This document shows positions 2,195 to 20,424 of a DNA stretch of 20,424 nt, one piece after another. Positions within the stretch are counted from its first letter, which is position 1. Each line of letters opens with the position of its first letter. Source of the DNA: a virus. The stretch lies in the UHGV virus genome UHGV-0172319; one strand, given 5' to 3'. A program made the position numbers and the translations under genes. Below the pieces are notes generated by a model. That model had not been told where the DNA came from. It did not search any database and saw only the letters and a program-made list of their open reading frames with translations.

Positions 2195-2218
2195 GGTAAG
2201 TTCTGAATGAACGTTACC
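2195..2218. promoter_or_regulatory. Imperfect inverted repeat (GGTAAGTTC / GAACGTTACC) 35-60 bp upstream of the protease start; candidate operator or 5'-UTR hairpin
   Basis: Read directly from sequence; arms share the GGTAA/TTACC core with the cI operator half-site; lies in a strongly AT-rich divergent promoter region (about 1960-2250). Confidence 0.35.
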
Positions 2219-2253
2219 CCTTGGTTTAAAACTCTTAACATAAGGACATCCGA

Positions 2254-3249: not shown

Positions 3250-3424
3250 CAAATCATCTACAGGAAACTTTGTCGTCTATACGAATAGGCATACAAATAC
3301 AGCAGCGCCTAAGACAGCAAGCACCCCATCTACTGCTCAAAAAGTTAGTAATAATGGTGTGAATGGCTACAGTAACTTTTTAAGTTGCACAACAGGTTCG
3401 GCCATAAAAAACAGTTTCTAAAAG

Positions 3425-3455
3425 CAACGGCTCATAATGAGCCGTTGTTGTTTCT
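3425..3455. terminator. Bidirectional rho-independent terminator between convergent protease gene and Q
   Basis: Perfect palindrome CAACGGCTCAT..ATGAGCCGTTG (3425-3447) followed by TTGTTTCT on + strand and preceded by an A-tract (T-tract on - strand). Confidence 0.55.
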
Positions 3456-3834
3456 ACTCACATTCTAAACGTATTTCGAGCATGCTAAGGCAACCATCGA
3501 TAAATCCCTCTGCCATCTGGATCTCGATGCGTATCAATTTTTCATCCTTCTTGCGCATTCTCGCTATCTTACGCTTAGAAATGCCATACAAATAATGCGC
3601 TACCAGTAGTGAATGCTCATAAGGCTTTCGCTTCTGAAGTCGGGCTAAGCAACCTTCTATAATAAGGGCATCATCATCGGTGCATGAAAGACGAGTTTTG
3701 CTTGTCTGAGGAAGAATCCCTTTAAAGCCAGCCGCAATAGGTGAGTAATCGACTCCTGAACTATCACTCGCTGCCCAACCACCCCAGCGCTCTAATACCA
3801 TCTGAATATCCCGCATGTAATCTCCACTGTTCAT
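3454..3834 (-). CDS. Late-gene antiterminator Q (QuuD / phage-82-type Q family)
   Basis: Core sequence MRDIQMVLERWGGWAA...IAAGFKG...LVAHYLYG...IQMAEGFIDGCLSMLEIRLE matches the lambdoid Q/QuuD family. Start at 3834 overlaps the upstream stop (ATGA); alternative start at 3816 gives MRDIQ. The longer track ORF to 3954 would overlap the upstream gene and is unlikely. Confidence 0.75.
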   Translation of the reverse strand: MNSGDYMRDIQMVLERWGGWAASDSSGVDYSPIAAGFKGILPQTSKTRLSCTDDDALIIEGCLARLQKRKPYEHSLLVAHYLYGISKRKIARMRKKDEKLIRIEIQMAEGFIDGCLSMLEIRLECE

Positions 3835-4820
3835 GCAAGCACGCCAATAGCAAGCGCGCGATCGATAAAACGAAATATCAACTCCAGCTGCGAGCCGTAT
3901 TTCTCTTCGAATACCACGGTATCCGCATGTAACTCGTCGTGATGCTTTCTGCACAAAGGCAACACCCAGAGGTCATGCGCTTTTGTCCCCATGCCGCCCT
4001 GACCGTGACCTATCAGGTGGTGCGGATCATCAGCCTGCTTACCACAGCAGGCGCACGGCTGGGCCTTCACCCATCGCGTGTATTTCTCATTTTCCCAGCG
4101 TCGGCGCTTCGGGCGTAGCATGAAGCTTTCCGGCGATTCCGGATCAATCCTGAGTGTCAGTACCTTTTTCGCCTTCTCCTGCACAATGCTGGTGGCCGGT
4201 AACGAGGGCACAATATCGCTTTCTCGCATGATGGATTTCGGCTCTTCATCCGGTAGTCGCAGCGCTTTATGTGCAACGCTTTCCGGTATCACGTCACCCA
4301 GATCATTTCTGACCATCCACCAGCACAACTCCGGGAGAGTCAGAACATGCGACTCAGAGAAACCTAAATCTGTTCGAATGACTGACAAAATCCAGGATAC
4401 CAGGTTTTTGCTGGCTATACCTGCAAGCTGTTCCGTGTATTGACCAGCGAGAGTGTGATCGCAGTGCCAGCACAGCCGGATGCTACCAGGCTGATGGTGC
4501 ATTATCGTGAAATTCTTGTCGTGCCATGTTGAATGGGGCCACTGGCATTCGAACTTTTTGTTTAACCAGCCATCAAGCGAAGACAATCCACCAGCGCGCT
4601 GAATAACGCGCTGATTTTCAAATATTCCACTCATTACCGGATCGTCTGCCAGTGGTTGAACCGCTGCCGGCACATGACCAGTATTGTAAGAGGCCATGCT
4701 TTCCGGTTCTGGCTCAAGTAAGACCCGACCGCGCATGAATAGCGGCATCAGTTCAGCACCGGGACGGAAAAGCACAACCCCCATTCGGTGGGCTATTTCA
4801 GGAGTTAACAACGCTCTCAC
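3831..4820 (-). CDS. DUF968-family protein (YdfU-like nin-region protein) with C-terminal Cys/His-rich motif
   Basis: 329 aa; C-terminal CACCGKQADDPHHLIGHGQGGMGTKAHDLWVLPLCRKHHDELH is typical of prophage DUF968 proteins; conserved position upstream of Q. Confidence 0.7.
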   Translation of the reverse strand: MRALLTPEIAHRMGVVLFRPGAELMPLFMRGRVLLEPEPESMASYNTGHVPAAVQPLADDPVMSGIFENQRVIQRAGGLSSLDGWLNKKFECQWPHSTWHDKNFTIMHHQPGSIRLCWHCDHTLAGQYTEQLAGIASKNLVSWILSVIRTDLGFSESHVLTLPELCWWMVRNDLGDVIPESVAHKALRLPDEEPKSIMRESDIVPSLPATSIVQEKAKKVLTLRIDPESPESFMLRPKRRRWENEKYTRWVKAQPCACCGKQADDPHHLIGHGQGGMGTKAHDLWVLPLCRKHHDELHADTVVFEEKYGSQLELIFRFIDRALAIGVLA

Positions 4821-4827
4821 AGCAACC

Positions 4828-5739
4828 TCACCCGACCAGATCGATAAGCTTCATCATCTCAGCAAATTTTGACTCGAAGAAATGTGGCTGAGTCTCGCGC
4901 GGGTTTGCTGGACTGGTAATGTTTTTCCCAAACAGACAGCCTTTCGCAGTAAGCGACCAGAACTTTTTAACTCCATTGATACCTGAACGGCTCTGGCGCT
5001 GTTTCTGCTCAACAATCCCCTGCCGGGACATCATGTGATAGACCTGATTGGCAGTGATCCGGAGATTATTAGCCTTGAGGAGGGCGCTTAGTGATTGCGT
5101 AGGTCGACTAGACCCGTCCTGTGCGCCTGCTGGTGCATCAATTGCATAGTGCGGCATCAGGTCTGGCAGGCCAGCAACTTGCTGCAGTTTGTGGTACGCC
5201 CCAAGCTTTGATGAATTTGAGAGGTTCAGCATTTTGGCGGCTGATTCGAGCAGGATAATACCGGCCTGAATTTTATCTGAAGTTTGTGAATGCGAAGCCG
5301 CATTCTGAGCAGCATCGAACGTTCTGATGACCTTAAGGTTAAAGGATGGGCTAATCCACATTGCATAGGCGTAAACAAGCTCTTTGCAGACGTAGGTTCC
5401 TCCGTTACGCCCCTGAATTGTCATCACCGGAATACTACGGGAATTTCCCGTAGTTTCTTTTTCCAACAATTCCACCAACGCCTGGGTTTCTGGACGCCGC
5501 ATGAACTCATGGACTTCCATTGAACGAGCGGATCGCTTTTCGCCTGAAGCGTTAAGCGCTGCTTTTTGCAGATCGTTAAGACAGTAATTGGATTCAAAAT
5601 ATTGACGTACGGAAACGCCATCAATTACAAGTAACTGATTCATTGTTTTCTCCACTGTTTTAGTGCGAAGGGGACTGCACTCCCGTTTCGCTTGCACCGG
5701 ATAACCATACCCTGAATTACCCATGTTTTGCTCTAGCAA
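4828..5739 (-). CDS. KilA-N domain protein (Rha/antirepressor-like nin-region protein)
   Basis: KilA-N-like segment (...GRNGGTYVCKELVYAYAMWISPSFNLKVIRTF...). RBS GAGGA precedes ATG at 5739; alternative start at 5643 (GGAG RBS) gives 271 aa. Confidence 0.6.
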   Translation of the reverse strand: MLEQNMGNSGYGYPVQAKRECSPLRTKTVEKTMNQLLVIDGVSVRQYFESNYCLNDLQKAALNASGEKRSARSMEVHEFMRRPETQALVELLEKETTGNSRSIPVMTIQGRNGGTYVCKELVYAYAMWISPSFNLKVIRTFDAAQNAASHSQTSDKIQAGIILLESAAKMLNLSNSSKLGAYHKLQQVAGLPDLMPHYAIDAPAGAQDGSSRPTQSLSALLKANNLRITANQVYHMMSRQGIVEQKQRQSRSGINGVKKFWSLTAKGCLFGKNITSPANPRETQPHFFESKFAEMMKLIDLVG

Positions 5740-6119
5740 GATGATATTTTTTCCTCAAATTTCTTGATCGAGATCTCTACTCTTCCCCCTTTCACTACTG
5801 GCCCCCACTCCACCAGCATTCTTTTCACCTGGCTGTCGTCCTCCCAGATCCCCGCGTGGGTAAGAGCGTCGAACAGCGCTTTGTTGTAGTTATCCAGATC
5901 CCGGATCCGGTTGTCCGGTGGGAACAGGATTATTTCAACAGCCGCCGGTGACGATGACGGCTTCGGGAGCATGCGCAGTTGTTCAATGATTGCCGCACAT
6001 GCTGACGACTGGAACTGGCGACCTTTGGCACTTATCAGGTGACGTCCCGCCAGCGGCCCCTTATTCGGGGCGCGCCAGTACGTGTTCACACTCGGAGGAA
6101 ACGGCAGCACCAGTTTCAT
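5733..6119 (-). CDS. rusA: Holliday-junction resolvase RusA
   Basis: 128 aa; start region and core (PPSVNTYWR...RDLDNYNKALFDALTHAGIWEDDSQV...KGGRVEISI) align with E. coli RusA, including the catalytic Asp-rich segment. Confidence 0.85.
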   Translation of the reverse strand: MKLVLPFPPSVNTYWRAPNKGPLAGRHLISAKGRQFQSSACAAIIEQLRMLPKPSSSPAAVEIILFPPDNRIRDLDNYNKALFDALTHAGIWEDDSQVKRMLVEWGPVVKGGRVEISIKKFEEKISSC

Positions 6120-6439
6120 ACCGTGATCCCCTTGTTTTTGAGATAGGCGATTGCGCGGTCCTTCGCACCATCCTCACCATTCACAAGCGCATGCAGCAGG
6201 GAATCTGCATCAGCAACGTTCTCCAGATCGTTGATGGCTATTCCCCGCGAAACGCCACGCGTCAGGGTGATAGCCCCTTTCCTCTCCAGCGCGCGCAGAT
6301 GATCCGCAGCAGCATTTGGGGAGCTGCATCCCAGCAGCCCCGAAAGTTCTGTATTGGTTGGAGGATAGCCATGCTCGCGTTGAAAGCTGATCAAGGTCTC
6401 CAGTACATGCTGCTGGCGAGCCGTGAGAATTTCTTTCAC
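6116..6439 (-). CDS. LexA N-terminal DNA-binding-domain-like protein (winged HTH, no S24 peptidase domain)
   Basis: 107 aa; LTARQQHVLETL...PPTNTELSGLLGCSSPNAAADHLRALERKGAITLTRGVSRGI parallels the LexA DNA-binding domain; no Ser/Lys peptidase region follows. Confidence 0.6.
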   Translation of the reverse strand: MKEILTARQQHVLETLISFQREHGYPPTNTELSGLLGCSSPNAAADHLRALERKGAITLTRGVSRGIAINDLENVADADSLLHALVNGEDGAKDRAIAYLKNKGITV

Positions 6440-7314
6440 GCGCTTTCCTCCAGAATGTTGACCATCTGAGCAGAAGCAACGGCAATGATCTCGCTGGTGG
6501 GCATACGTTCAAGCCATAGCTGATTGATATTGTCTTTCAGCTTGTTCTGCTGTGACTCAGTCAGGGCGTCAACGCCATCCACCTGGTTAAACACCAGACC
6601 AACCTCGAGAGGCCAGATACGCGATTCGACTTCTGGTAATGTCAGCGGCGCAGGTGGCTGTACTGTTTCTGCCTGGCGGGTCTTACCAGCGGCAAATGTG
6701 ACCAGCGACATAAACGCCTTCCCTTTTTCCTCCAGATCGGTACGGCTGATGTAGCTGAAACGCTCGCCGCGCCATGACTTATCGAAGATTGCAATGGCGC
6801 CAGCAAAGAAAGCACCTGTGGGTTTCTGCTTATCGTCAGCAGGAACAAACCACACAGGGAGATCGAAACCAATGCGACCGCGAATAAACATGATGTGATC
6901 GGCATCTTCAGGCCACCATGTTTCACTTGTCGCCGCTTTAATGAGGAACACGTAACGCCCCCCCTTTTCACGCATCTCCATTGTGTGATCCATGATGTGG
7001 GTCATGCCGGTGATCGCCTGCTTCTCGTGGTACTGAGAGCGGCTATAGGGTGGATTACCGAATGCGGCCCCGCCGATTGATTCCAGCATTTCCGACCAAT
7101 CCTGCATCAACGCGTTATCTTCGGCGGTGTACCAGACCGGGCACTTCGCGTTATCGTCGTCAGCAAACAGATCCAGAACCAACGGCCCAAATATTGAGTT
7201 GATCCCCCAAAACAACAGATCCGGAGTACACCATTGATCACCAACCTCTTTCAGTTCATGGGCTGGTTTGCTTCGCAGTGAGGCCAGCGCCAGGCTGTAG
7301 GAACTAATATTCAT
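6436..7314 (-). CDS. Phage Dam-family N6-adenine DNA methyltransferase with C-terminal extension
   Basis: 292 aa; motif IV NPPY (AAFGNPPYS) in the N-terminal half; about 100 aa C-terminal extension of unknown function; 4-bp overlap with the upstream replication gene. Confidence 0.7.
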   Translation of the reverse strand: MNISSYSLALASLRSKPAHELKEVGDQWCTPDLLFWGINSIFGPLVLDLFADDDNAKCPVWYTAEDNALMQDWSEMLESIGGAAFGNPPYSRSQYHEKQAITGMTHIMDHTMEMREKGGRYVFLIKAATSETWWPEDADHIMFIRGRIGFDLPVWFVPADDKQKPTGAFFAGAIAIFDKSWRGERFSYISRTDLEEKGKAFMSLVTFAAGKTRQAETVQPPAPLTLPEVESRIWPLEVGLVFNQVDGVDALTESQQNKLKDNINQLWLERMPTSEIIAVASAQMVNILEESA

Positions 7315-8351
7315 GATGACACTCCTTTCCCTGCCTCAGTTGACCAGATGTTGTTCCACCCAAACTGCGCCAGACCGTGGTTATAGCCTTTTGCCTTCAG
7401 CCCATCACGATCAGCTTTTGCACGGACCAATACTTCAACTTCGCTTTTCGGCTCGTTATTAGCTTCAAGGTCATGGTATCGACGCCAGGCAAGATCACGC
7501 TCAGCGGTATCAACACCAGCGTCCTGGCTGTAGCCATTCAGTTGCGTGGCCTGTCTTTTTGTCTTATTCCAGTCTTCTCTGGCTGGTCGCCCACGGCTTT
7601 CCCAGCGCGTGGCACTCTGCAGATAGCCTTCGAACTTCTTCGGGCCGAACAGCGTTTCAGGGCGCATGTACTGGTACTGCTCATCGTTGCCGTGCCAGTG
7701 CTCGTGTTTCAGGTCGATAACCAGTTGCAGGTCAGCAACGCTGTAACCTTCACGCAGACGAGCACGAATGTTTTCCAGCGAGGTTTTTGATTTCTGAAAG
7801 CGGGAGCCGCTGACCTGGTTCAAATGGGTTAAAACAAGAATGGCGTTATCGGTGATCACAACTTCAGGGTCTGGTTGCGACGCAACCGGACAAGAAGGTT
7901 TTTTACCTGATGGATCAGTAGTTGAATTTACTGACGGATCCCCGCCAGATTCTGACGGGTGAAAACCGCAATTCTGACCGGATTTTGACGCATCAAATTT
8001 TGACGGGTCAGATTTTGATGCGTCAGATTTTGACGGGTCAGAATCTGACAGGTGAGCGAATGCAACTGTCTGGAGTTTTGCCACATTCAACTGATAAACA
8101 TTGGAGGCATTTCGGTTGCCCTGTCGCCGCGCTTTGCGTGACAACCAGCCATCGGCTTCAAGCTTCGCTATTGCCGTTCTGACAGTGCTGACGCCTGCGC
8201 CAAGCTGGCGCGCGATTGTTTCAATGGAAGGCCAGCAGACACCTTCGTCATTGCTGAAATCAGCCAGGCGCGCCATAATAGCCACGCTGGATAACTTCAT
8301 TCCTGACGCTGCACAGGCATCCCATACATAGCCTGTCAATTTAGTGCTCAT
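7311..8351 (-). CDS. Phage replication initiation protein (replisome organizer, O-like) with N-terminal HTH and internal repeat region
   Basis: 346 aa; N-terminal winged-HTH-like segment; central peptide repeats (SDSDPSKSDASKSDPSKFDASKS) encoded by DNA iterons; position after cro/cII matches lambda O / P22 gene 18. Confidence 0.7.
   Translation of the reverse strand: MSTKLTGYVWDACAASGMKLSSVAIMARLADFSNDEGVCWPSIETIARQLGAGVSTVRTAIAKLEADGWLSRKARRQGNRNASNVYQLNVAKLQTVAFAHLSDSDPSKSDASKSDPSKFDASKSGQNCGFHPSESGGDPSVNSTTDPSGKKPSCPVASQPDPEVVITDNAILVLTHLNQVSGSRFQKSKTSLENIRARLREGYSVADLQLVIDLKHEHWHGNDEQYQYMRPETLFGPKKFEGYLQSATRWESRGRPAREDWNKTKRQATQLNGYSQDAGVDTAERDLAWRRYHDLEANNEPKSEVEVLVRAKADRDGLKAKGYNHGLAQFGWNNIWSTEAGKGVSS
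7948..8051. repeat. Iteron array (about 7 tandem copies of a roughly 12-15 bp unit, consensus approx. TCAGATTTTGACGG); candidate replication origin inside the replication gene
   Basis: Direct tandem repeats read in sequence (tctgacggg / attctgaccg / gattttgacgc / aattttgacggg / tcagattttgatgc / gtcagattttgacggg / tcagaatctgacagg). Confidence 0.6.
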
Positions 8352-8694
8352 GCTTCAACCCTTTTAAACTTATCCCTGAACCGCTCAACAGGCTGCATGC
8401 AGTCATGTGGGTAACCTTTTCGCCTGAAAATAACTTGTCGCTTTTCGCGTTCATATCCGATGACGTGGACTTCAATTCCCCGGTGGTCTCTGTATTTGCG
8501 ATCAAGCTCTTCCACTCTTTCGGCCCCTTTTCATTCATGGCTGAAAATGCGCCTACCAAATTGTCCGCAGGCTGGTAGTTGTGGCTGCCATCGGCGCAAC
8601 GTACTCTTTCCACATAGCCGAACGGGACATTACGCCCCACCAGCGGCGGACAACGAAATTGCTTCGCGGGTCTGAATCGGTTTAAACTGTTCAT
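8341..8694 (-). CDS. Hypothetical protein between cII-like gene and replication gene
   Basis: 117-aa ORF with plausible RBS (GGAG, 9 nt spacing); no recognisable motif; overlaps the replication gene start by 11 nt. Confidence 0.4.
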   Translation of the reverse strand: MNSLNRFRPAKQFRCPPLVGRNVPFGYVERVRCADGSHNYQPADNLVGAFSAMNEKGPKEWKSLIANTETTGELKSTSSDMNAKSDKLFSGEKVTHMTACSLLSGSGISLKGLKHEH

Positions 8695-9245: not shown

Positions 9246-9443
9246 TTACGCTGCTGAATCTGTAGCCTTCTGGTAAAGAGCAGCGTCATATTTCAATTTG
9301 CCTTTTGTGATTCGTTCGATCACGAAGGCCTGTTTCTCTGGAATGACTTCACCCCACCTGCAAACTGCCGGGTGAGAAATACCGAGCGCATATGCGGTTT
9401 TGGATACACCGCCAAAATGCTCAAGAACTTCTGATTTACGCAT
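9246..9443 (-). CDS. cro: Cro-like repressor (P22 Cro family)
   Basis: 65 aa; VLEHFGGVSKTAYALGISHPAVCRWGEVIPEKQAF...KGKLKYD resembles P22 Cro (as recalled from memory, not searched); divergent from cI; RBS GGAGGG. Confidence 0.8.
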   Translation of the reverse strand: MRKSEVLEHFGGVSKTAYALGISHPAVCRWGEVIPEKQAFVIERITKGKLKYDAALYQKATDSAA

Positions 9444-9538
9444 GTTCCCTCCTAGTTAACCTACGCCCTAAAGGTAACAAAAGGTACATTAAATAGCAAA
9501 CAACAGTTACAGGAAAACAATGTAACATTCGTTACATG
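9444..9538. promoter_or_regulatory. OR-like immunity operator/promoter region between divergent cro and cI
   Basis: Contains operator copy GGTAACAAAAGGTACATT (9473-9490) and a related inverted element TGTAACATTCGTTACATG (9521-9538) overlapping the cI start; several GTAAC/GTTAC hexamers. Confidence 0.65.
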
Positions 9539-10198
9539 AAAACAGAGATGAAAGACCGAATCAGATCAAGGCGTGTACAGCTCGATATAACGCAGCAGAC
9601 CCTAGCTAAAAAGCTGGGGGTTAGCCGTGTATCTGTAACAAAATGGGAAAGCGGAACCACAAAACCAGATGGAGAGAACCTTCATCAGTTAGCGCTGGCT
9701 CTGCAAACCACCCCAGAATGGATTCTTTATGGTCAGGGCGATGATGAAAAAGTTGATGACACAAAATTAGTGCCATACTTAAAAACACCAACCGCCGTCC
9801 CAATTATTTCTGCTGTTCAGGCAGGCCTGTGGACTGATACCTATGCATGCTCAAGGCTGACTGATGTGATTTCCTGGACTCAAACAACTGCTAATGTTTC
9901 TGACGAAGTTTTTGGTCTTGTCGTTCGCGGCGAATCGATGACAAACCCACATGGACTCCCTTCAATACCTGAAGGCTCTATCGTAATCGTTGAACCACAC
10001 TATGGTCAGCTAGATGACCTTTATGGGAAGATCGTAGTTGCAGTTCTGGATGGCTCTGCTGAAGCTACGGTGAAAAAGTTAGTATGGGATAGCCCTTATG
10101 CCTATCTCATGCCACTAAATCCAGTGTTTAAACCCATTCAGATTGATGGAAATTGCAGAATCGTTGGAAAGGTTGTTCAGATTACGCAAAACCTATAG
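9536..10198 (+). CDS. cI: CI-type prophage repressor (N-terminal HTH plus C-terminal S24 LexA-like autopeptidase domain)
   Basis: 220 aa; HTH (LDITQQTLAKKLGVSRVSVTKWESG); C-terminal VVRGESM (Ser nucleophile) and TVKKL (Lys) as in lambda CI/LexA; divergent from cro. Confidence 0.9.
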   Translation: MKTEMKDRIRSRRVQLDITQQTLAKKLGVSRVSVTKWESGTTKPDGENLHQLALALQTTPEWILYGQGDDEKVDDTKLVPYLKTPTAVPIISAVQAGLWTDTYACSRLTDVISWTQTTANVSDEVFGLVVRGESMTNPHGLPSIPEGSIVIVEPHYGQLDDLYGKIVVAVLDGSAEATVKKLVWDSPYAYLMPLNPVFKPIQIDGNCRIVGKVVQITQNL

Positions 10199-10218
10199 TC
10201 CTCACCTCATCATGTAAT

Positions 10219-10245
10219 GCCAGCGAGATCGCTGGCTTTTTTTTT
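10219..10245 (+). terminator. Rho-independent terminator downstream of cI
   Basis: GCCAGCGA..TCGCTGGC stem followed by a run of nine T. Confidence 0.6.
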
Positions 10246-10249
10246 ACCC

Positions 10250-10310
10250 AAAAGGTAACAAAAAGTACATTACACACTTGACCATCATGGTAACTAAAGG
10301 TACATTCTTA
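10250..10310 (+). promoter_or_regulatory. OL-like operators with pL-like promoter (-35 TTGACC 10278-10283, -10 TACATT 10301-10306, 17-bp spacer)
   Basis: Two further copies of the 18-bp operator: GGTAACAAAAAGTACATT (10254-10271) and GGTAACTAAAGGTACATT (10289-10306); the latter overlaps the -10 element. Confidence 0.65.
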
Positions 10311-10583
10311 TTACACCGTAGGAACCATTGGTTACCACGGAAAGTTCCTTGTTCTGGCTGTTCACTTTCCCCTTGAGGGTGTCAGCCAGCCTTTTCAGGG
10401 CACAACATGCAAGCGCACTCCTTCACTTACCAGTTATGGGTGACAGGTGTGAAACGGCGGAGTGCGCTTGCAGTTGTGGTGAAGTGCAGCCCTCAGAGGT
10501 AACCAGAAGATAAGCATCTGGCGCCACAACCCAATCACGTAGCCAGCGTGGTACCAGGAAGTAAGAAAGCTGTGTGTAGTCTT

Positions 10584-10655
10584 GGCGGTACCAGGGTCTT
10601 CAACCTGAAAAAAGGGGGACGAAGATAATGTTCTACCTCGGTACCGCCCTTTTTT
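10584..10655 (+). terminator. Terminator/attenuator-like structure in the early-left leader
   Basis: 9-bp perfect inverted repeat GGCGGTACC (10584-10592) / GGTACCGCC (10640-10648) followed by TTTTTT; an upstream AAAAAAGGG tract (10608-10616) can alternatively pair with CCCTTTTTT (10647-10655). Confidence 0.4.
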
Positions 10656-10791
10656 ACAAAACAGACAAGGGCATCACCGGGCGACGGGCTCATAACCCAA
10701 TCCACCCGGGCGGTTGCAGCCGCAGGTGCTCTTGTCTGTTTTGTGGAGAAACTAACTGGCGGTTGCGACCGCCAACTCGAGGGTTAAGACG

Positions 10792-11163
10792 ATGAGTAAT
10801 GACCGCATGACCGTAGTGCCCGATTTCCTGGGCGAACTGGATGCCGGCGTGTTCATGAACAAGATCGCCGCTGCGCTGAATACCACCGCGCTCGGCGTTC
10901 TGAACAACGGCAACAAAGGCAAGGTAGTCCTCACCTTTGATTTTGAGCGTATGGGTAACTCCGTCGAAGAAAAGCGCGTCAAGATCAAGCACAAGCTGAA
11001 CTACAGCACCCCGACACCGCGCGGTAAAGCGTCTGAAGAGGACACAACCGAAACCCCTATGTGGGTCAACAAAGGCGGGAAGCTCACCATCCTCCAGGAG
11101 GATCAGGGGCAACTGTTCGGGATCACCGGTACGGTGGACGGAAAGCTTAAAGCGGCTCAGTGA
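10792..11163 (+). CDS. Hypothetical early-left protein (resembles CPS-53 YfdP-type gene by position and size)
   Basis: 123 aa; RBS GAGGG; first gene after the pL leader; family assignment from memory only. Confidence 0.5.
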   Translation: MSNDRMTVVPDFLGELDAGVFMNKIAAALNTTALGVLNNGNKGKVVLTFDFERMGNSVEEKRVKIKHKLNYSTPTPRGKASEEDTTETPMWVNKGGKLTILQEDQGQLFGITGTVDGKLKAAQ

Positions 11164-11219
11164 TCCGCAGCAACAAATTCACTGATACCACTTCGATCAT
11201 CAGTTAATAAGGAATTTCT

Positions 11220-12047
11220 ATGTCTCAGTTAGACAGCGGTGCATTTAAGCAGGTAAAAGACCTGGTCCTTTCTGGCTACCACCTGAATGATATTCAGGAT
11301 CTGGCATGCCCTACCGCTTTGTTGCCAGAAGGAACCAGCGTTGAAAGCCTCGAGCGTTTTTCTCTGGAGCGTTTCCGCTTTCGCGGCGCAATGACCACGA
11401 CCAGCATTGACGACTTCGCTCGTTACTCGAAGGGTTACGCCAGCGCCGACGAACCCGCCCGTTGCTTTATTGACGCTGACAACATGACCGCCCGCTCGGT
11501 ATTCAATATCGGTTCCCTGAAAAATCCTGGACATGCCGATAACGTTGCCGCTATCACCCTGAAGAAAACTGCCCCGTTCCGCGCTCTGCTGCAGATCGAT
11601 GGTCAACGCCTGAAGCAAAAGCAAATCGCTGAATGGCTGGAAGACTGGAGCGATTATCTGCTGGCGTTCGATGCTGATGGCAATACGATGCAAATTTCCC
11701 AGGCCGCCCAGGCTGTACGCCGTATCACTATCCAGCAGGCAACCCAGCAGGATCATGAAACGGGTGACTTCGCAGGTAAACGTTCACTCATGCAAAGCGT
11801 CGAAGCCAGCAGCAAAGATGTCATGCCGGTGGCGTTCGAGTTCAAGTGTGTGCCGTATGAAGGGCTTGGCGAGCGCCGCTTTAGTCTGCGTAACAGCCTG
11901 CTGACTGGTGATGAGCCAAGCTTTGTTCTGCGTATCGTCCAACTGGAAGCCCAGGAAGAAGCGATCGCCAACGAGTTTCGCGATCTGCTGATCAGTAAAT
12001 TCGACGGTGAATCAGTAGAAACTTTCATCGGTAACTTTAAAGCATAA
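11220..12047 (+). CDS. DUF2303-family protein (YfdQ-like)
   Basis: 275 aa; RBS AAGGAA; size and position match the CPS-53 yfdQ-yfdR arrangement; immediately precedes the HD-domain gene. Confidence 0.65.
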   Translation: MSQLDSGAFKQVKDLVLSGYHLNDIQDLACPTALLPEGTSVESLERFSLERFRFRGAMTTTSIDDFARYSKGYASADEPARCFIDADNMTARSVFNIGSLKNPGHADNVAAITLKKTAPFRALLQIDGQRLKQKQIAEWLEDWSDYLLAFDADGNTMQISQAAQAVRRITIQQATQQDHETGDFAGKRSLMQSVEASSKDVMPVAFEFKCVPYEGLGERRFSLRNSLLTGDEPSFVLRIVQLEAQEEAIANEFRDLLISKFDGESVETFIGNFKA

Positions 12048-12058
12048 TTGCTCAGCAT

Positions 12059-12086
12059 TAAATCCCCGGCGTCGCGGGGATTTATT
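12059..12086 (+). terminator. Stem-loop, weak terminator or attenuator, between yfdQ-like and yfdR-like genes
   Basis: AAATCCCCG..CGGGGATTT hairpin followed by ATTG; may allow read-through. Confidence 0.4.
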
Positions 12087-12178
12087 GAAGCGTAATTCCT
12101 TTATATATCGCCATCTGGCGAGGGATTCGTGCAACCAAAAATCGTGCGGTGCAGCGCACCAATTAAGGAGAACTAACG

Positions 12179-12718
12179 ATGAGTTTTATCCAGACTCTTT
12201 CCGGTAAGAAGTTCGATTATATCAACTCCACCATTGACGATATTGATATCGAAGACATCGCCGGGGCGCTTTCCAATATCTGCCGCTTCGCGGGGCACCT
12301 GTCGGAATTTTACAGCGTGGCGCAGCACTCCGTTCTGTGCAGTCAGCTCGTGGCGCCAGAGTTCGCCTTTGAAGCGCTGATGCATGATGCCGCAGAGGCA
12401 TACTGCCTGGACATCCCTGCCCCGCTGAAAGCTTTGTTGCCAGATTACCGCCGGATCGAGACGCGCACGGATCAACTGATCCGCCTGAAATTCGGCCTGC
12501 CTCTCGACGAGACATACCTCGTTAAATATGCCGACCTGACTATGCTAGCGACCGAGCGCCGGGATCTGGATATCGACGACGGCTCCATATGGCCGATTCT
12601 GGAAGGTATTCCACCAACGGATTTATTCGAAATTCATCCTTTGCGCCCCGGTCAGGCTTTCGGCCTGTTCATTAACCGGTTCAATGAACTGATGGAGCTG
12701 CGCCAATGCGCCGCCTGA
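12179..12718 (+). CDS. HD-domain phosphohydrolase (YfdR-like 5'-deoxynucleotidase family)
   Basis: 179 aa; HD motif (ALMHDAAEAY) and upstream His (SVAQHS); RBS AAGGAG; size and motifs consistent with CPS-53 YfdR. Confidence 0.8.
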   Translation: MSFIQTLSGKKFDYINSTIDDIDIEDIAGALSNICRFAGHLSEFYSVAQHSVLCSQLVAPEFAFEALMHDAAEAYCLDIPAPLKALLPDYRRIETRTDQLIRLKFGLPLDETYLVKYADLTMLATERRDLDIDDGSIWPILEGIPPTDLFEIHPLRPGQAFGLFINRFNELMELRQCAA

Positions 12719-12882: not shown

Positions 12883-13133
12883 CCGTATTCGAATACGTCC
12901 AGGCCTATCCCAATACCACCAGCAGCGATATTGCTAAAGCGCTGCACAGAAGGACACCTGTCGTGGCCGGCGCACTATCGCAACTCTACACCACTGGCCA
13001 CATCGTAAAAACTGGCGTTCGTGGTGGCGCACCAACTTACCGCGTTAACGATCTGCCATTCGGCTGCAGTAATCCTCTGACGCTAATGTTCAACCAGCTT
13101 TTACAGGCAGTTCGCCGGGAGGCAGCCCAATGA
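12879..13133 (+). CDS. Hypothetical small protein (84 aa, possible winged-helix)
   Basis: ORF with coupled start; overlaps the downstream PAPS-reductase-family gene by 4 nt. Confidence 0.5.
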   Translation: MTVFEYVQAYPNTTSSDIAKALHRRTPVVAGALSQLYTTGHIVKTGVRGGAPTYRVNDLPFGCSNPLTLMFNQLLQAVRREAAQ

Positions 13134-14155
13134 GCAACATTGACCAGCGCTGCCTTGCAAAAAACACCTTCAATTTAATTTCCATGTCCGGTGGGAAGGA
13201 CTCTCTCGCACAATGTCTGTACGCAGTAGAGAACGGCGTGCAGCACGAGCGGGTGTTTGCTGACACTGGTCACGAACACCCACAAACGATGGAGTACCTC
13301 GATTACCTGGAACAAAAGCTGGGTCCGATTCGCTGTGTAAAAGCCGACTTTACTCGTCAGATCGAGGGTAAGCGTAAATTCATTGCAGAAAAATGGCCGG
13401 TCTCCCTCGTTGAAGAATGTGGGATGTCTCAAGATGAAGCGGCGGAGCGCATTGCAAAAGCCTTAGAAATCCTCCACCCAACCGGTAATCCATTTCTTGA
13501 CCTGTGCATGTGGAAAGGCCGATTTCCGAGCACAAAGGCGCGGTTCTGCACGTTCGACCTTAAACATGAGCCTGTACGCACTCAGGTGGTGCTGCCGGCA
13601 CTTGATGAATATGACGAGGTTATCAGCTGGCAGGGTGTACGCGCCCAGGAATCGCCAGCGCGGGCCGGCCTGCCAATGTGGGAAGAAGATGCAGACAATA
13701 CGCCTGGCCTGCACGTCTATCGTCCGATCCTCAACTGGCTGCATGAGGATGTATTCGCCATTGCTAAACGCCACGGTATTAAACCTAACCCACTCTACCA
13801 GCAGGGATGCAGCCGGGTTGGGTGTATGCCGTGTATTCATGCTCGTAAATCTGAACTGGCAGAAATTTTCCAGCGCTGGCCGGAGGAAATCGCCAGGGTG
13901 GCGGAGTGGGAGCGATTCGTTGCGGCCTGCTCCCGCCGTGGAAATTCTACCTTCTTCCCGTCGACTCATGACCCACGAAGGGCGGAACGTCGCATAGACG
14001 TTATCACTGTTGACGGTTACGGGATTGAAACCTATCGAGACTGGGCAATGACCACTCGCGGGGGGCGCAATTTGATTTACTGGCCGCTGCGAACGATAAA
14101 TCCGTGTGCAGCAGTATTTATGCGGGGGTGTGCGAATGAACGAAAAACTACTTGA
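13130..14155 (+). CDS. PAPS-reductase-family PP-loop ATP pyrophosphatase-like protein
   Basis: 341 aa; PP-loop motif SMSGGKDS near the N-terminus; Cys-rich C-terminal region (GCSRVGCMPC); RBS GGAGG. Confidence 0.8.
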   Translation: MSNIDQRCLAKNTFNLISMSGGKDSLAQCLYAVENGVQHERVFADTGHEHPQTMEYLDYLEQKLGPIRCVKADFTRQIEGKRKFIAEKWPVSLVEECGMSQDEAAERIAKALEILHPTGNPFLDLCMWKGRFPSTKARFCTFDLKHEPVRTQVVLPALDEYDEVISWQGVRAQESPARAGLPMWEEDADNTPGLHVYRPILNWLHEDVFAIAKRHGIKPNPLYQQGCSRVGCMPCIHARKSELAEIFQRWPEEIARVAEWERFVAACSRRGNSTFFPSTHDPRRAERRIDVITVDGYGIETYRDWAMTTRGGRNLIYWPLRTINPCAAVFMRGCANERKTT

Positions 14156-14422: not shown

Positions 14423-14632
14423 ATGGCAAAGCTAATGAAGGCGAGTCAATGGGGACGCCGTGAATTTACCAATGACTCAGTTCCTGACAACCGAACTATT
14501 AGACGTTGGGTCGAGAATGGTTTACTCATGGGACGTATCGTGGACGGTTCTGTTTTTGTCTGCGAAACAGAAAAATGGGGTGTCGACTCAATGGTTAGTC
14601 AAGTAGTTCGCCAGTTAATTAATGAGGGCTGA
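14423..14632 (+). CDS. xis: Excisionase (Xis)
   Basis: 69 aa; TIRRWVENGLLMGRIVDGSVFV resembles the lambda Xis winged-helix core; immediately upstream of int with 1-codon spacing; RBS GGAG. Confidence 0.65.
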   Translation: MAKLMKASQWGRREFTNDSVPDNRTIRRWVENGLLMGRIVDGSVFVCETEKWGVDSMVSQVVRQLINEG

Positions 14633-14634
14633 CC

Positions 14635-15813
14635 ATGGCGGCAAGGCCAAGAAAAAAAGAATACCGACATCTGCCGGACTATCTGGTATTTGATAAAGAT
14701 CGAGGTGTTTATAAATTCACACTTATTACCGGGAAGAAGAAAAATATAGGTAAGGATCGGGCCATAGCAATAGCTATCGCTAGAGAGTACAACCTGAGAA
14801 TGAGACCTGAGCTTTCCCCGTCGGTTGATAATCTCATTAGAGAATCTGGTGGGGCTACTGGAGAAGCCAAACCATTTGCTGAACATGTGGATCACATAAT
14901 GGAACGTGCTATTGAGGACGAGCGCCCTTCTCAGAGCACCCTGGATGACTGGAATAATGACGCACTACGCGTAAAAGAGTTTTTCGTTAATGTTCCTGCC
15001 TGCGATATCGAGTTGGAGCATGTTAACGCATACATCAATCAATACCATGCCGGCGCGTCTGCGAACGTGCAAAACAGAAAAGTCAGCTTCCTTAAAAAGC
15101 TGTTTTCGTATGCGGTCGATGAATCCCTGATGCTCGATAATCCGGCAACCCGGAAGAAAATGCGCAGGACCGAAGAGAAGAAAAGACAACGCCTGTCTCT
15201 CGATCATTTCATGGCTATCCGGCGCGCTGCAGCACCATGGTTAAGAACGGCAATGGACCTGGCTCTACAGACGACACATGCGCGCCTCGAAGTATCGAGG
15301 ATCCGTTATTCAATTCGCGAACCCAAAAACGGTATATGTGGTTGTGTCTGGCTCGATCAGCCAGAGAACGGTATCTATGGAACACTATACATACACCGCC
15401 AAAAGGTACAGAAGAAGGAGGCGTCGCACGTTGCGATCCCCATAGGTGATGAGTTAAAACGCATCATTGATGATAGCCGGGATAATGTGGCCAGCCCGTA
15501 TGTTGTTCACCGGATCCCAGAACGGCAGGTAAAACGGAGTAAAGAGGTTTCGCATCCCACCCAGGTGGCCCCGGACTATTTAAGCCGCTCATTCTCTGCA
15601 GTACGCGACAAGCTCGGGTTATGCAATCACCTCGCTATGGATGAAAGACCTACCTTCCATGAAATACGCGCGTTGGCTGCTCACTTGTTTAATCAACAGG
15701 GTATCGATCCACAAGGACGAATGGCGCACAGTGATGCCAAGTCAACGAAGATTTATACCCAAAACCATATTGATTGGGTCGTTGTTCCTCATGGAGAAAT
15801 TTTAACGGCATAA
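14635..15813 (+). CDS. int: Tyrosine integrase (lambda Int family)
   Basis: 392 aa; C-terminal catalytic-region motifs (HEIRALAAHL; IYTQNH with putative Tyr nucleophile); N-terminal arm-binding-like domain; position after xis. Confidence 0.9.
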   Translation: MAARPRKKEYRHLPDYLVFDKDRGVYKFTLITGKKKNIGKDRAIAIAIAREYNLRMRPELSPSVDNLIRESGGATGEAKPFAEHVDHIMERAIEDERPSQSTLDDWNNDALRVKEFFVNVPACDIELEHVNAYINQYHAGASANVQNRKVSFLKKLFSYAVDESLMLDNPATRKKMRRTEEKKRQRLSLDHFMAIRRAAAPWLRTAMDLALQTTHARLEVSRIRYSIREPKNGICGCVWLDQPENGIYGTLYIHRQKVQKKEASHVAIPIGDELKRIIDDSRDNVASPYVVHRIPERQVKRSKEVSHPTQVAPDYLSRSFSAVRDKLGLCNHLAMDERPTFHEIRALAAHLFNQQGIDPQGRMAHSDAKSTKIYTQNHIDWVVVPHGEILTA

Positions 15814-16123: not shown

Positions 16124-16159
16124 CCCCTTGCATTGGTTGGCGCCAAGCAAGGGGTTTTT
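16124..16159. terminator. Bidirectional terminator between convergent int and ImmA-like gene
   Basis: CCCCTTGC..GCAAGGGG stem (16124-16154) followed by TTTTT; a second hairpin AAGGCACC..GGTGCCTT sits just after the int stop (15817-15837). Confidence 0.5.
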
Positions 16160-16679
16160 ACATTTTGTCTAACTGATAACGTGCGGCCACTAATGATACT
16201 CCGCATGCCTCAGCAACATTTTCAGCACCCATCCCTTTTAAAACATTGGCATGAATAGCTGGCACTAATAACTCACCACTAAAACATTTAGCTTGCCACT
16301 CACTACTCTCAAAAGGGCGGATTTTAACCCCTGGAGCAGAACGAGCAAAAGCTATGTTCCTGTGCATGAGAAGATGGCCCAACTCATGCGCGGCAGTCAT
16401 CCTGTCACGACCAACCCCATTCAAAGCACCTTCGTAGATGTCTTCGCGCAGAATTAATAAATGTTCCTGCGGGTACGTAAGTCCATGCGTCTCCCCCATT
16501 TCTTTCATCCCGCCGATGTGGAGTTCAAAATCAGGGATCAACTGAGGCAATGCGAACTCAATTACCTCCATAACAGGAAACTTCAGACCTGTAATACCGA
16601 AGGTGCTCCGCAGAGATCTGACGATCGAACGTATTGATTCACGATTCTGCGGGGGTACTCGATAATCTTGTCCGCTCAA
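16158..16679 (-). CDS. ImmA/IrrE-family zinc metallopeptidase (COG2856-like)
   Basis: 173 aa; HEXXH motif (AAHELGHLLMH); apparent TTG start preceded by a strong AGGAGG RBS; directly downstream of the XRE HTH gene. Confidence 0.8.
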   Translation of the reverse strand: MSGQDYRVPPQNRESIRSIVRSLRSTFGITGLKFPVMEVIEFALPQLIPDFELHIGGMKEMGETHGLTYPQEHLLILREDIYEGALNGVGRDRMTAAHELGHLLMHRNIAFARSAPGVKIRPFESSEWQAKCFSGELLVPAIHANVLKGMGAENVAEACGVSLVAARYQLDKM

Positions 16680-16687
16680 ACTGCCTC

Positions 16688-17047
16688 CTACTGCTGTTTT
16701 CGATTCAAAATCTGTCGTAAATTCCGGAAGTCTTCTTCGTTTAACTCATCAAAACTACGAGCGAACGCAATTGCGACTTCACGAGCGTGGTCGTTCTTAC
16801 CTGACAAGCTGATCTCTACTGATTGCTGAGAGTCACGAGCTGCACTGATAAGCTTTTCTTTTTGTTTTTCATCCGCATTAAGATAGCCAATGATGCTATC
16901 AAGCACGGGTTTAGTGACCGCCCTTTTACCAGTTTCGATTGCTGAAAGATAAGACGAGGTCATACCCATAGCCTCAGCCATGCTTTTAAGCGTAAGCCCC
17001 AGGTCTATGCGCATTTTTCTTACTGTCTTACCAAACGGCGTTAACAT
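16688..17047 (-). CDS. XRE-family helix-turn-helix transcriptional regulator
   Basis: HTH segment (LGLTLKSMAEAMGMTSSYLSAIETGKR); ATG at 17047 with GGAG RBS (the track ORF's TTG at 17080 is less likely); forms an operon with the ImmA-like gene. Confidence 0.8.
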   Translation of the reverse strand: MLTPFGKTVRKMRIDLGLTLKSMAEAMGMTSSYLSAIETGKRAVTKPVLDSIIGYLNADEKQKEKLISAARDSQQSVEISLSGKNDHAREVAIAFARSFDELNEEDFRNLRQILNRKQQ

Positions 17048-17121
17048 ATGTTGTATCTCCAGTGTGTCAAAGACCCCCAATACTCTCGGGTCTCATTTTA
17101 AGTTAACACGCTCCAGACATG

Positions 17122-17145: not shown

Positions 17146-17343
17146 GTTTTATCTGACTTAGTTAATGAGTTTTTCATGTTCTGTTGATAGAACCTTTAGC
17201 TGAGTGAAGATATATGGGGAAATATGGGATATAAGTCTTTGATGTACAACACACACATTTTGCGAAAAATGCACTGTTTGTTTATACATACGAATGGTTA
17301 GCAACAGCAGACATGGAGCGACTTGCAGAGCTTTCGAAGCGGT

Positions 17344-17391
17344 GTCATGGGGTGTCGGGGGTCGGAGGTTCAAATCCTCTCGTGCCGACCA
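17344..17391 (+). other. 3' fragment (about 48 nt: anticodon-loop region, T-arm, acceptor 3' strand, CCA) of a tRNA-Pro(GGG)-like gene, with no matching 5' half; candidate att core
   Basis: GTCATGGGGTGTCGGGGGTCGGAGGTTCAAATCCTCTCGTGCCGACCA has the T-loop GGTTCAAATCC and acceptor CGTGCCGACCA; matches enterobacterial proL as recalled from memory; no complementary CGGCACG acceptor 5' strand upstream. Confidence 0.6.
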
Positions 17392-17401
17392 AAATTCCCC
17401 A

Positions 17402-17433
17402 GAAAAACCAGCCTTTTACGGCTGGTTTTTTTA
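17402..17433 (+). terminator. Rho-independent terminator directly after the tRNA fragment
   Basis: CCAGCC..GGCTGG stem followed by TTTTTTT. Confidence 0.6.
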
Positions 17434-17523
17434 TTATTGCCGTCCACCGAAATGGAATTCGATTCGAGTTATGGACGGAAATAATGTTACACTTCCGGTT
17501 TTGCACAGCCGATCTTATTGCTT

Positions 17524-17886
17524 ATGTGGCATCACTTCATCAAGTACACCTCCGTAGGCGTGATCAACACATTGATTCACTGGATAGTTTTTGCTATCTG
17601 CATCTACGCCTTTCATACCCATCAGGCGCTGGCGAATTTCCTGGGCTTCAGTGTGGCGGTCAGTTTTTCTTTTTACGCCAACGCCCGGTTTACCTTTAAG
17701 CAATCGACCACAACGCGTCGCTATCTGCTGTATGTCGGCTTTATGGGCCTGCTCAGTATCCTGACGGGTTGGGGGGCCGAACAGTGCGGTTTCCCACCGC
17801 TGGTGACGCTGGTCGCGTTCTCCGCCATTAGTCTCATTTGTGGCTTTATTTATTCCAGATTCATTGTATTCAAGGACGCACGATGA
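17524..17886 (+). CDS. gtrA: GtrA, bactoprenol-linked glucose flippase (O-antigen glucosylation)
   Basis: 120 aa from ATG 17524; small polytopic membrane protein ([14 protein letters not shown]..., ...[18 protein letters not shown]) closely resembling P22/SfV GtrA as recalled. Confidence 0.85.
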
Positions 17887-18830
17887 AAATTTCACTGGTC
17901 GTTCCTGTCTTCAACGAAGAAGAAACCATTGGCCTCTTTTACAAGACGGTGCGTGAATACGACGCACTGAAAGAACATGATGTCGAAATTGTGTTCATCA
18001 ACGATGGTAGCACCGACGCAACGGAATCCATCATCAACGCCCTCGCCGTCGCCGACCCACTCGTTGTTCCGCTCTCGTTTACGCGAAATTTTGGTAAAGA
18101 ACCGGCGCTGCTCGCCGGGCTCGACAATGCCAGTGGCGATGCCGTCATTCCGATGGATGTCGATCTCCAGGATCCTGTCGAAGTCCTGCCGCACTTGATT
18201 CAAAAATGGCAGGATGGGGCGGACATCGTGCTGGCTAAGCGTTCCGATCGCTCCGTCGATAGCCGCCTGAAGCGAAAATCCGCCGAGTGGTTTTATAAGC
18301 TACACAATAAAATCAGCACGCCGCATATCGAAGAAAACGTCGGCGATTTTCGGCTGATGAGTCGTGAAGTGGTGGACAACATTAAACAAATGCCAGAACG
18401 AAATCTGTTCATGAAAGGGATTTTATCCTGGGTTGGCGGCAAAACTGACATCGTCCTCTACGCGCGCGCCACTCGCTGTGCCGGGAAAAGTAAATTCAAC
18501 GGCTGGAAACTGTGGAACCTTGCACTGGAAGGGATCACCTCTTTTTCTACCTTCCCTCTGCGTATCTGGACCTACATTGGTCTGGCGGTTGCCCTGCTTT
18601 CTTTCACCTACGGTGCAGGAATGGTGATAGATACGCTTCTGTGGGGAAATCCCGTGCGTGGCTATTCTTCCTTGATTGTGTCAATCCTGTTTCTGGGAGG
18701 CGTACAGCTTATTGGCATTGGCGTGCTGGGTGAGTATATCGGACGAATCTATGTCGAGACCAAGCAGCGGCCTCGATACATTCTGAAAAAACGTAAAACT
18801 GTGGACCACGATTCAGACAAGGATAACTGA
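17883..18830 (+). CDS. gtrB: GtrB, bactoprenol glucosyltransferase (GT2 family)
   Basis: 315 aa; [13 protein letters not shown]... with DxD-type region (PMDVDLQD); C-terminal TM helices; start overlaps gtrA stop (ATGA). Confidence 0.9.
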
Positions 18831-20374
18831 TGTTAAAGCATGTTAATAAAAGCATTCTTTTAATTGCCTTTTTTGCAGTATTTATCCTGGAGTGGTTCAC
18901 CCCTATTCACTCCGATGATTACCGTTATGCCCTGCTTGGCATCTCATTTGATGCGCACCTGCATCACTACCTGACCTGGAGCGGGCGCATAGTGGCTGAT
19001 TTTGTCAGCTCGCTTTTACTCGCCACCGGATCTCGTGGATTTATCTCAACCATGACCGGCCTTGTCGTCGTCGCGTTCTGCTATTTCATTGTGAAAACGC
19101 CGACGGGCACGCTGAAATGGAAAAAACATGACGCGCTGATCTTTACCCTTATTTTTCTGACCTTTTGGGTCGCTAACCCGAATATCGGACAAACGGTTTT
19201 CTGGATAGTCGGCAGCGCGAACTACCTGTGGACGAATCTGTTCGTCGCCGCATGGCTCTGGAACCTGTACCGCATACAGCTTCAGCGTGAAGAGCGTACA
19301 CACATGGGTATGCTGTTGCTCGGGCTGTTGGCGGGCTGTTCCAATGAAAGCGTCGCGCCATTTGTCGTGGGTTTTGCCCTTCTGGCTATCGTGTACGATT
19401 ACTGGCAAGCGAAACGCGTCTTTGCGAATAAGGTCGCGTATTTTTTGTCCGCACTGGTGGGCGCCAGTATTTTGATTTTCTCACCAGGCAATTTTATTCG
19501 CGCTCAGGGCGCTCATACCGTCTGGTATGATAAATCGATCGTTGAAAGAATCACAATTCATCTGAGCGAGCGCTTCTTTAACCACCTGGCGCTGGTCTGG
19601 ATTTCTTATGTCGTACTGGTCTTACTGGCAATGCTTCTGATCGTGGCCAAACGACAAGGCCATCGCATTAAAAGTGCGAATCTCAACATGGTCGGCTTAA
19701 TGCTGTTGGTGGGGCTGGGAACCTCTTTAATTATGGTGGCCTCCCCGTCGTATCCTGACCGCGTCATGCTGTCGACATTTTTATTTTTCCTGCTTGCCCT
19801 CTCGTTCCTTGCGCGGGAAGTCGTCACGGTAGCCGGACCATGTGTCATGAAAGGAGTCTATGTCGTTACGGGCCTGATGGCTGCGGTATTCATCTGGTCA
19901 TACGCGTTAATGTATGCCGCTTATACGCGCGTTTATGAGCAGGATGTTGTTCGTGTGAATATCGTTAAGCGCCAACTCAGCCAGGGTCACAAGGACTTTA
20001 CGGTGCCTGACTTCCACTTCCTGAAAATGCAAAACAGCGGAGGGCATTTCGGTTTCTTTCACGATCCGCAGGTCTATGGCCGTTATTTTGCCGCAGGGAA
20101 TGTGGCGAAGAAAAAAGTTAACTTCGACTACTCCGTACTCGTCAACGGTAAGCAGCAAACCATCGATGACAATACCGTGGCCTGGTTCAATCACCGCGGT
20201 GATTTAATGCTGGTGAGCAAGCATCCATTAACCGGTACCGTGCAGGTGAAGACCGAATCGTCCGATACGTCGCGCTCGCTTACGCGCTTTACCGCCGCGA
20301 AAATTAACGATGAATACTGGTATTTCAGCGCCATACCTAAAGCAGAAGTGACTCACGTCGCGCTGCTGCCCTGA
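18830..20374 (+). CDS. gtrC: GtrC-type serotype-specific O-antigen glucosyltransferase (polytopic membrane protein)
   Basis: 514 aa; many hydrophobic segments over the first 380 aa then a soluble C-terminal domain; third gene of the gtr operon, start overlapping the gtrB stop. Confidence 0.7.
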   Translation: MLKHVNKSILLIAFFAVFILEWFTPIHSDDYRYALLGISFDAHLHHYLTWSGRIVADFVSSLLLATGSRGFISTMTGLVVVAFCYFIVKTPTGTLKWKKHDALIFTLIFLTFWVANPNIGQTVFWIVGSANYLWTNLFVAAWLWNLYRIQLQREERTHMGMLLLGLLAGCSNESVAPFVVGFALLAIVYDYWQAKRVFANKVAYFLSALVGASILIFSPGNFIRAQGAHTVWYDKSIVERITIHLSERFFNHLALVWISYVVLVLLAMLLIVAKRQGHRIKSANLNMVGLMLLVGLGTSLIMVASPSYPDRVMLSTFLFFLLALSFLAREVVTVAGPCVMKGVYVVTGLMAAVFIWSYALMYAAYTRVYEQDVVRVNIVKRQLSQGHKDFTVPDFHFLKMQNSGGHFGFFHDPQVYGRYFAAGNVAKKKVNFDYSVLVNGKQQTIDDNTVAWFNHRGDLMLVSKHPLTGTVQVKTESSDTSRSLTRFTAAKINDEYWYFSAIPKAEVTHVALLP

Positions 20375-20381
20375 ATAAAAA

Positions 20382-20417
20382 AGCCTCTCATCACGATGAG
20401 AGGCTCTCCCCCTTTTC
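20382..20417 (+). terminator. Rho-independent terminator after gtrC
   Basis: AGCCTCTCATC..GATGAGAGGCT stem followed by a C/T-rich run (CTCCCCCTTTTCC). Confidence 0.6.
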
Positions 20418-20424
20418 CCGACAG

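Follow-up and report, generated by a model that had tools for sequence, protein, structure and literature searches.

The tRNA-like sequence at 17344-17433 of the window, by which we mean the whole 20,424-nucleotide stretch of DNA analysed here (UHGV-0172319), is very probably of host origin. We suggest that it is the displaced host 3' end of the proline tRNA gene proL, lying at the int-proximal end of a lambda-like prophage in a Citrobacter-type chromosome, and that the gtrABC genes that follow it also belong to the host. The junction is a textbook feature of a known kind at an already recognised integration site. For annotation, the right-hand boundary of the prophage lies at about 17343/17344 and the tRNA-like piece is not to be counted as a gene.

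The tRNA-Pro fragment and the host flank

The fragment occupies 17344-17391 on the plus strand (GTCATGGGGTGTCGGGGGTCGGAGGTTCAAATCCTCTCGTGCCGACCA), and all 48 of its nucleotides match linear positions 30-77 of proL, a tRNA-Pro(GGG) gene, a segment that begins with the 5' strand of the anticodon stem and ends in CCA. The reference for this comparison is the complete gene called by ARAGORN in a related locus, L003 (8486-8562). An exact match of this length to a tRNA gene is far beyond what chance would give, and the fragment can be read as the att identity block that contains the crossover point. An earlier note on this DNA had described a perfect 48-nt tRNA-Pro 3' end with CCA and no 5' strand, and had proposed an alignment to host tRNA-Pro genes as a check; its coordinates and description are exact. 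The first 29 nt of proL have no counterpart in the window even when three mismatches are allowed, and ARAGORN calls no complete tRNA gene in the whole window. Rfam finds nothing at the gathering threshold, and even at E<=10 there is no tRNA match in 17200-17500, where sub-threshold T-arm/terminator matches are the only ones returned. The note had also allowed that the fragment might turn out to be part of a complete tRNA in a covariance-model scan; these searches give no sign of it, and a complete cloverleaf is not recovered. The fragment is the 3' part of a host tRNA gene standing without the 5' part, an arrangement expected at a prophage junction in a tRNA gene. It is not a functional tRNA gene, as judged from its sequence, and lacking the promoter-proximal 5' half it would not yield a tRNA.

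The spacer and intrinsic terminator of host proL follow at 17392-17433, also on the plus strand, and are identical to the empty-site chromosome. The note had placed a terminator here, and folding bears this out: the hairpin 17401-17413/17420-17432 with its T-run has an energy of -18.2 kcal/mol and a z-score of -5.8, which was equalled by none of 200 shuffles. The consensus terminator scanner does not report this hairpin, probably since the A-run/T-run lengthens the stem, and folding was used instead. In the host DNA between the proL terminator and gtrA there is a 14-nt inverted repeat at 17433-17446/17472-17485 (ATTATTGCCGTCCA/TGGACGGAAATAAT; 93% complementary), which is also found in prophage-free L003. 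It could be a regulatory hairpin or an operator for gtrA.

The side of the junction that belongs to the host is fixed by an empty site. For this comparison we used contigs that encode a GtrC identical to that of the window. One of these, L003, is a prophage-free 5.1-Mb chromosome with the order yejM, intact proL (8486-8562), gtrA-gtrB-gtrC, narP, and ccmH onward. The window from 17344 to 20424 is 100% identical to L003 8515-11595 over 3081 nt, and the identity begins exactly at tRNA position 30. Thus, the same flank is joined to an intact proL in a chromosome without the prophage. Because of this complete identity to L003, we assign the DNA from 17344 rightward to the host, and the terminator at 17392-17433 would be that of host proL and not a phage feature. 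The earlier note had offered two readings, an intact attP or a prophage junction with gtrABC in the adjacent DNA. The empty site in L003 upholds the second and speaks against the first.

The three genes to the right of the terminator are all on the plus strand: gtrA at 17524-17886 (GtrA_DPMS_TM, PF04138), gtrB at 17883-18830 (Glycos_transf_2, PF00535) and gtrC at 18830-20374 (DUF6056/GT_STM0557_N, PF19528). A flippase-like GtrA, a GT2 bactoprenol glucosyltransferase GtrB and a serotype-specific GtrC are present in that order, and together they are predicted to form an O-antigen glucosylation cluster. On the comparisons above, we place gtrABC in the resident host chromosome, outside the prophage. 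The O-antigen modification is assigned to the host chromosome, and serotype conversion should thus not be attributed to this prophage.

We take the host to be Citrobacter-like. The yejK-yejM region is 83% identical to that of E. coli, and GtrC has relatives of 61-91% identity, likewise between proL and narP, in Citrobacter sp. ANG330, C. amalonaticus, C. sedlakii, Intestinirhabdus and another enterobacterium. In E. coli, yejO stands at this position in place of gtrABC. Prophages that differ in their cargo or lack it sit at this very point in four further contigs with an identical GtrC (L004, L005, L006 and L007), and their similarity to the window resumes within the att arm, at 17258. Two short-read contigs, L008 and L009, start inside the fragment, their position 1 being window 17364 and 17366, respectively. 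Such breaks are as expected for a segment that is present twice, once at each prophage end, or for samples with mixed populations of lysogens and non-lysogens.

A second att repeat after gtrC was found neither in L003, in a lenient search, nor in the window. A BLAST row had suggested a second tRNA fragment at 6528 of L010, the ANG330 locus; this is an artefact of alignment extension, and a lenient short-query search returns the complete proL alone. In ANG330 (L010 2565-6600), an arm remnant of phage type (ACGGGGAATAAC...) comes after the complete proL, and umuD/umuC homologues stand between it and gtrABC. The C. amalonaticus ku-bf3 locus (L015 6681-6760) has three degenerate arm repeats after proL and lacks gtrA, gtrB and the 5' end of gtrC. 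The remnants in both genomes look like leftovers of earlier proL prophages.

Integrase, att arms and related phages

The integration genes lie to the left of the fragment. The integrase gene (14635-15813, plus strand) encodes a 392-aa lambda-family tyrosine integrase with an arm-binding N-terminal domain. It matches Arm-DNA-bind_1 of Pfam at 26.9 bits (cut-off 22) and PHROG 1, integrase, at E=2e-32; the match to the catalytic domain, Phage_integrase, is under the Pfam cut-off at 20.6 bits. The protein is 79% identical to the Int of phage Eeyore and 23% identical to lambda Int, and the gene is transcribed towards the att site. Directly upstream, at 14423-14632 on the plus strand, is a putative excisionase gene (69 aa). 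This call is weak, with PHROG 629 matched at E=8e-4 and the HTH family DUF4817 below its cut-off; in the E. coli and Citrobacter relatives, too, int is preceded by a 210-nt ORF in this place. With the 3' part of proL beside a lambda-family Int, the proposal of the earlier note that this is the att sequence of a tRNA-targeting integrase is well founded.

Between int and the att site, the window carries two cargo genes on the minus strand, one for an M78 (ImmA/IrrE-like) peptidase (16158-16679; PF06114) and one for an XRE-type HTH protein (16688-17080; PF13560/PF01381). Relatives have other contents in this slot. E. coli 362 has a DUF4760 protein together with an AAA ATPase there, L004 encodes an unknown protein of 256 aa, and in L005 the slot is empty. 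Across the IMG/VR relatives the core lies 0.15-3.2 kb past the int stop codon, and the interval has the look of a hotspot for morons or defence genes. The gene proL is an integration hotspot common to related E. coli and Citrobacter phages, and the int-att interval is a variable cargo slot.

The phage DNA next to the fragment, at 17209-17343 on the plus strand, is the int-proximal att arm. It starts with a tandem GATATATGGG/GAAATATGGG repeat at 17209-17228, in which we see putative arm-type Int sites. It also contains a block of about 55 bp (about 17238-17292) that recurs, whatever the cargo, at the attP of the phages Flotzy, Eeyore and Phi06_2987 and in prophages of E. coli and Citrobacter. 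In an alignment of nine att sequences, this block is conserved in all the phage-bearing ones, whether free-phage attP or prophage junctions, and CATGGGG...GACCAAAA is invariant in attP, attB, attL and attR. Each attP has its own diverged copy of the proL terminator. The window and the three free phages alike have the motif TGGGGAAA at -131/-132 relative to the core. It occurs twice in the window against 0.86 expected, a count that is not significant by itself, and for this reason the conserved position is what suggests a role as an arm site.

On the other side of the core, the free phages have two or three such repeats at about 113-133 nt after it. In eight IMG/VR contigs, a complete proL adjoins a phage arm in which three repeats, either of the GGGGAA type or of the ATGGTGAAA type, stand in tandem. 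True attP and attL copies carry three tandem arm-type repeats about 110-135 nt past the core, and the simplest reading is that these repeats are arm-type sites for Int. In the window there are no arm-type repeats after the core, which argues against an intact attP. In Flotzy and Eeyore the order is xis, int, core, umuD-like, dinI and tail-fibre genes, and this represents a true attP. Our literature search found nothing specific on Flotzy/Eeyore, on prophages at proL and yejM, or on gtrABC in Citrobacter.

Both junctions can be followed in a related lysogen. The related E. coli prophages have an int that is 83% identical at the DNA level and the same layout of xis, int, cargo, fragment and terminator, followed by yejO-narP. 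In E. coli 362, the tRNA end begins with yejM and an intact tRNA-Pro and continues with DinI-like, acyltransferase, tail-fibre and contractile-tail genes and head genes; then come lysis genes, Q, replication genes, the repressor, xis, int, cargo, the fragment and yejO-narP. In an alignment with attP and attB, its two junctions share tRNA positions 30-77 and AAAATCCC, and differ beyond. The terminator on the side of the intact tRNA is the phage copy and that on the int side is the host copy. A direct repeat with the complete tRNA at the far end is thus seen in a related E. coli lysogen, and the eight IMG/VR contigs show the same join of proL to a phage arm. The shared segment occurs at 5712 places in 5426 complete E. 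coli genomes. Because this amounts to about 286 extra copies, a few per cent of E. coli strains would have an element at proL. The gene proL has been named among the prophage sites in STEC O121 (PMC8767318).

The search for Int relatives in IMG/VR gave 80 loci, of which 19 reach the core. In all 19, the core is again a fragment of the tRNA gene and has the orientation seen in the window, on the int strand and downstream of int. The earlier note had observed that the 3' end of the fragment points away from int and had thought this atypical for an int-proximal reconstituted tRNA; the observation is correct, and this orientation is the norm in the phage family. What lies past the true attP varies: a tail-tip and a tail-fibre protein in L081, an Acyl_transf_3 protein and baseplate genes in L034, and a NEL E3-ligase effector and a tail fibre in L033. 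No match to GtrA, GtrB or GtrC was obtained by tblastn in the 84 loci L019-L102, which comprise three att loci (Flotzy, Eeyore and Phi06_2987), one 49-kb stretch of an E. coli lysogen and the 80 IMG/VR Int relatives.

Some of the genes distal to int in these relatives are host-interaction morons. L033 encodes an LRR-NEL E3 ubiquitin-ligase effector (10191-11987), and Acyl_transf_3 proteins resembling O-antigen acetylases are encoded in L034 (11141-12220) and in E. coli 362 (L022 34273-35298). A different arrangement is present in C. amalonaticus P55 (L011 1356-5019), in which a shorter integrase of 324 aa on the opposite strand abuts a proL fragment that starts at tRNA position 27; after this fragment come a 798-aa invasin/RCC1-repeat protein and then gtrABC. 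We regard the P55 element as a second, unrelated element family that uses proL.

Integration model and rival explanations

We propose the following course of integration. The attP would duplicate the 3' portion of proL, starting at the anticodon stem-loop and running a few bases past CCA. Int would bind the core and the arm sites, presumably with host bending proteins, as inferred from what is established for lambda-family integrases and tRNA-targeting elements. Strand exchange would then take place inside the identity block. Its most likely position is the anticodon loop, at the block's left edge, given that the anticodon stem is where the identity starts; the junction is identical to attB from 17344 on, so that any point within the 48-nt block would fit. 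With the 3' part brought in by the phage, proL would be made whole again at the prophage end that is far from int, beside the tail genes, and the host's own 3' part with its terminator, now window 17344-17433, would be displaced to the int-proximal end. To the left of the fragment there would then be the phage att arm and to the right untouched host DNA, with gtrABC followed by narP-ccm just past the window. The fragment would be one half of a direct repeat, at which Int and Xis are predicted to reverse the reaction by excision. The observed parts of this scheme are the empty site, the identity block with phage DNA on one side and host DNA on the other, and, in a relative, both junctions.

A rival explanation is that the window holds an intact attP from an unintegrated or circularly permuted phage, and that gtrABC is a serotype-conversion module of this phage, as in P22 or SfV. 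With xis, int, att, gtrA, gtrB and gtrC following each other on a single strand, the window does resemble a P22-type map, as the earlier note had emphasised, and relatives carry morons for surface modification (Acyl_transf_3) beyond attP. However, phage DNA is not found on both sides of the core, since the identical gtrABC stands after an intact proL in prophage-free L003 and leads on to narP-ccm. In addition, none of the 84 loci L019-L102 gave a gtr match, tail-fibre genes and other morons follow attP in the relatives that continue past it, and the window is without the three tandem int-distal arm repeats. We consider this explanation highly improbable. Because gtrABC is resident without a prophage and gtr is missing from L019-L102, the P22-like order would be a coincidence, in which a prophage end is juxtaposed with a host gtr operon. 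It can also be asked whether site-specific recombination was involved at all, as the fragment might be a tRNA pseudogene that decayed by deletion or duplication. That the tRNA is incomplete is the sole point in favour of this. Independent prophages of E. coli and Citrobacter break with the host sequence at one and the same tRNA position, which is also where the attP core of free phages has its edge, an integrase and a conserved att arm adjoin the fragment, and there is zero decay, the sequence being 100% identical to the live gene. A pseudogene is thus hardly credible.

Another proposal is compatible with the displaced proL end that we favour, and concerns the older history of the flank. Here two phage-derived elements would meet: proL-gtrABC would be the fossil of an older proL phage, gtrABC would come from the int-distal arm of that phage, and the present prophage would have inserted beside it. 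It is established that gtr operons are typically phage-borne and next to tRNA genes; GtrC is in the STM0557 family, and E. coli has yejO instead of gtrABC. The arm-repeat remnants after the proL terminator in ANG330 and C. amalonaticus ku-bf3 also point this way, as does umuDC in ANG330, which is like the int-distal arm of Flotzy/Eeyore; they show that remains of phages build up at this site. However, neither L003 nor the window has an arm-repeat remnant between the terminator and gtrA, no second att repeat follows gtrC, and none of the relatives in L019-L102 has gtr. The order proL-gtrABC-narP is moreover shared by Citrobacter species, Intestinirhabdus and another enterobacterial genus, with a divergence that roughly tracks the flanks, which fits long vertical residence. 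We therefore think this proposal unlikely. In a wider form, proL-narP would be a long-lived landing pad where successive proL phages leave their int-distal morons, and gtrABC would be one such fossil. The hints for this are umuDC and the arm remnants in two Citrobacter genomes and the acyltransferase or effector found here in relatives, and we offer it tentatively, as a rather doubtful idea. If it were true, the P22-like order would echo an ancient serotype-converting phage.

Known systems and the remaining prophage genes

The favoured reading, a displaced proL end at a prophage junction, has close parallels in known systems. The likeness to lambda Int/Xis lies in an arm-binding tyrosine integrase with a small xis just upstream, in int being directed towards att, in short repeated arm motifs with three in tandem on one arm, and in a prophage with the identity block repeated in direct orientation at its two ends. 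The differences are in the target, which is a tRNA gene here and the gal-bio intergenic region in lambda, in the identity block (about 48-57 bp versus 15 bp), and in Int, with only 23% identity. Lambda has its three tandem repeats on the int-proximal side, in the P' arm, whereas the three-repeat arm is distal to int in the proL family. Much closer are the E. coli proL phages and prophages (Eeyore, Flotzy, Phi06_2987 and those of STEC O121), which share the core, the int-proximal arm block, the layout xis-int-(cargo)-att and, at 79% identity, the Int. They differ in that the flank is yejO-narP in E. coli and gtrABC-narP in the window, where the host is Citrobacter-like and the cargo is the HTH protein and the M78 peptidase.

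The phages P22, SfV and Sf6, with int-attP-gtrABC or oac, are alike in linear order, and some relatives of the window phage do have an O-antigen-type acyltransferase beside attP. The difference is that the gtrABC genes of the window belong to the host side of the junction and also occur where there is no prophage. In addition, P22, SfV and Sf6 target thrW or argW, not proL. For integration at tRNA genes in general, as with P4-like and other tyrosine integrases, attP reportedly carries the 3' part of the tRNA, and the gene is rebuilt on integration. The present site agrees in having an identity block from the anticodon stem-loop to the 3' end, and there is no difference of substance. It is the displaced fragment and not the rebuilt gene that lies beside int, because of the int-to-core orientation in this phage family.

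The phage part of the window is the early and integration half of a lambdoid prophage, with holin, Q, replication genes, cro, cI, xis and int. On the minus strand are the genes for a holin (298-612), a DNA methyltransferase (747-1799), a Q-like antiterminator (3454-3954), a Dam methylase (6436-7314) and a replication protein (7311-8351). Two ORFs on this strand are named by position: a RusA-like ORF (5733-6119), for which a related E. coli prophage has a RusA gene at the matching place, and a cro-like ORF (9246-9443) beside the repressor. On the plus strand are a CI-like repressor (9536-10198), homologues of yfdP, yfdQ and yfdR (10792-12718) and, just upstream of xis-int, a PAPS-reductase family gene (13130-14155). 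The prophage thus has two DNA methyltransferases (747-1799 and 6436-7314), one of which is of the Dam type. Between the methyltransferase and Q there is also a 331-aa ORF (2254-3249, plus strand), which is on the strand opposite to its neighbours and sits in a 40% GC island, a low-GC patch at about 2000-3500. This ORF encodes a ClpP-like serine protease domain of the SDH type (PF01972), also matches PHROG 11747, a family of unknown function, and is probably a moron.
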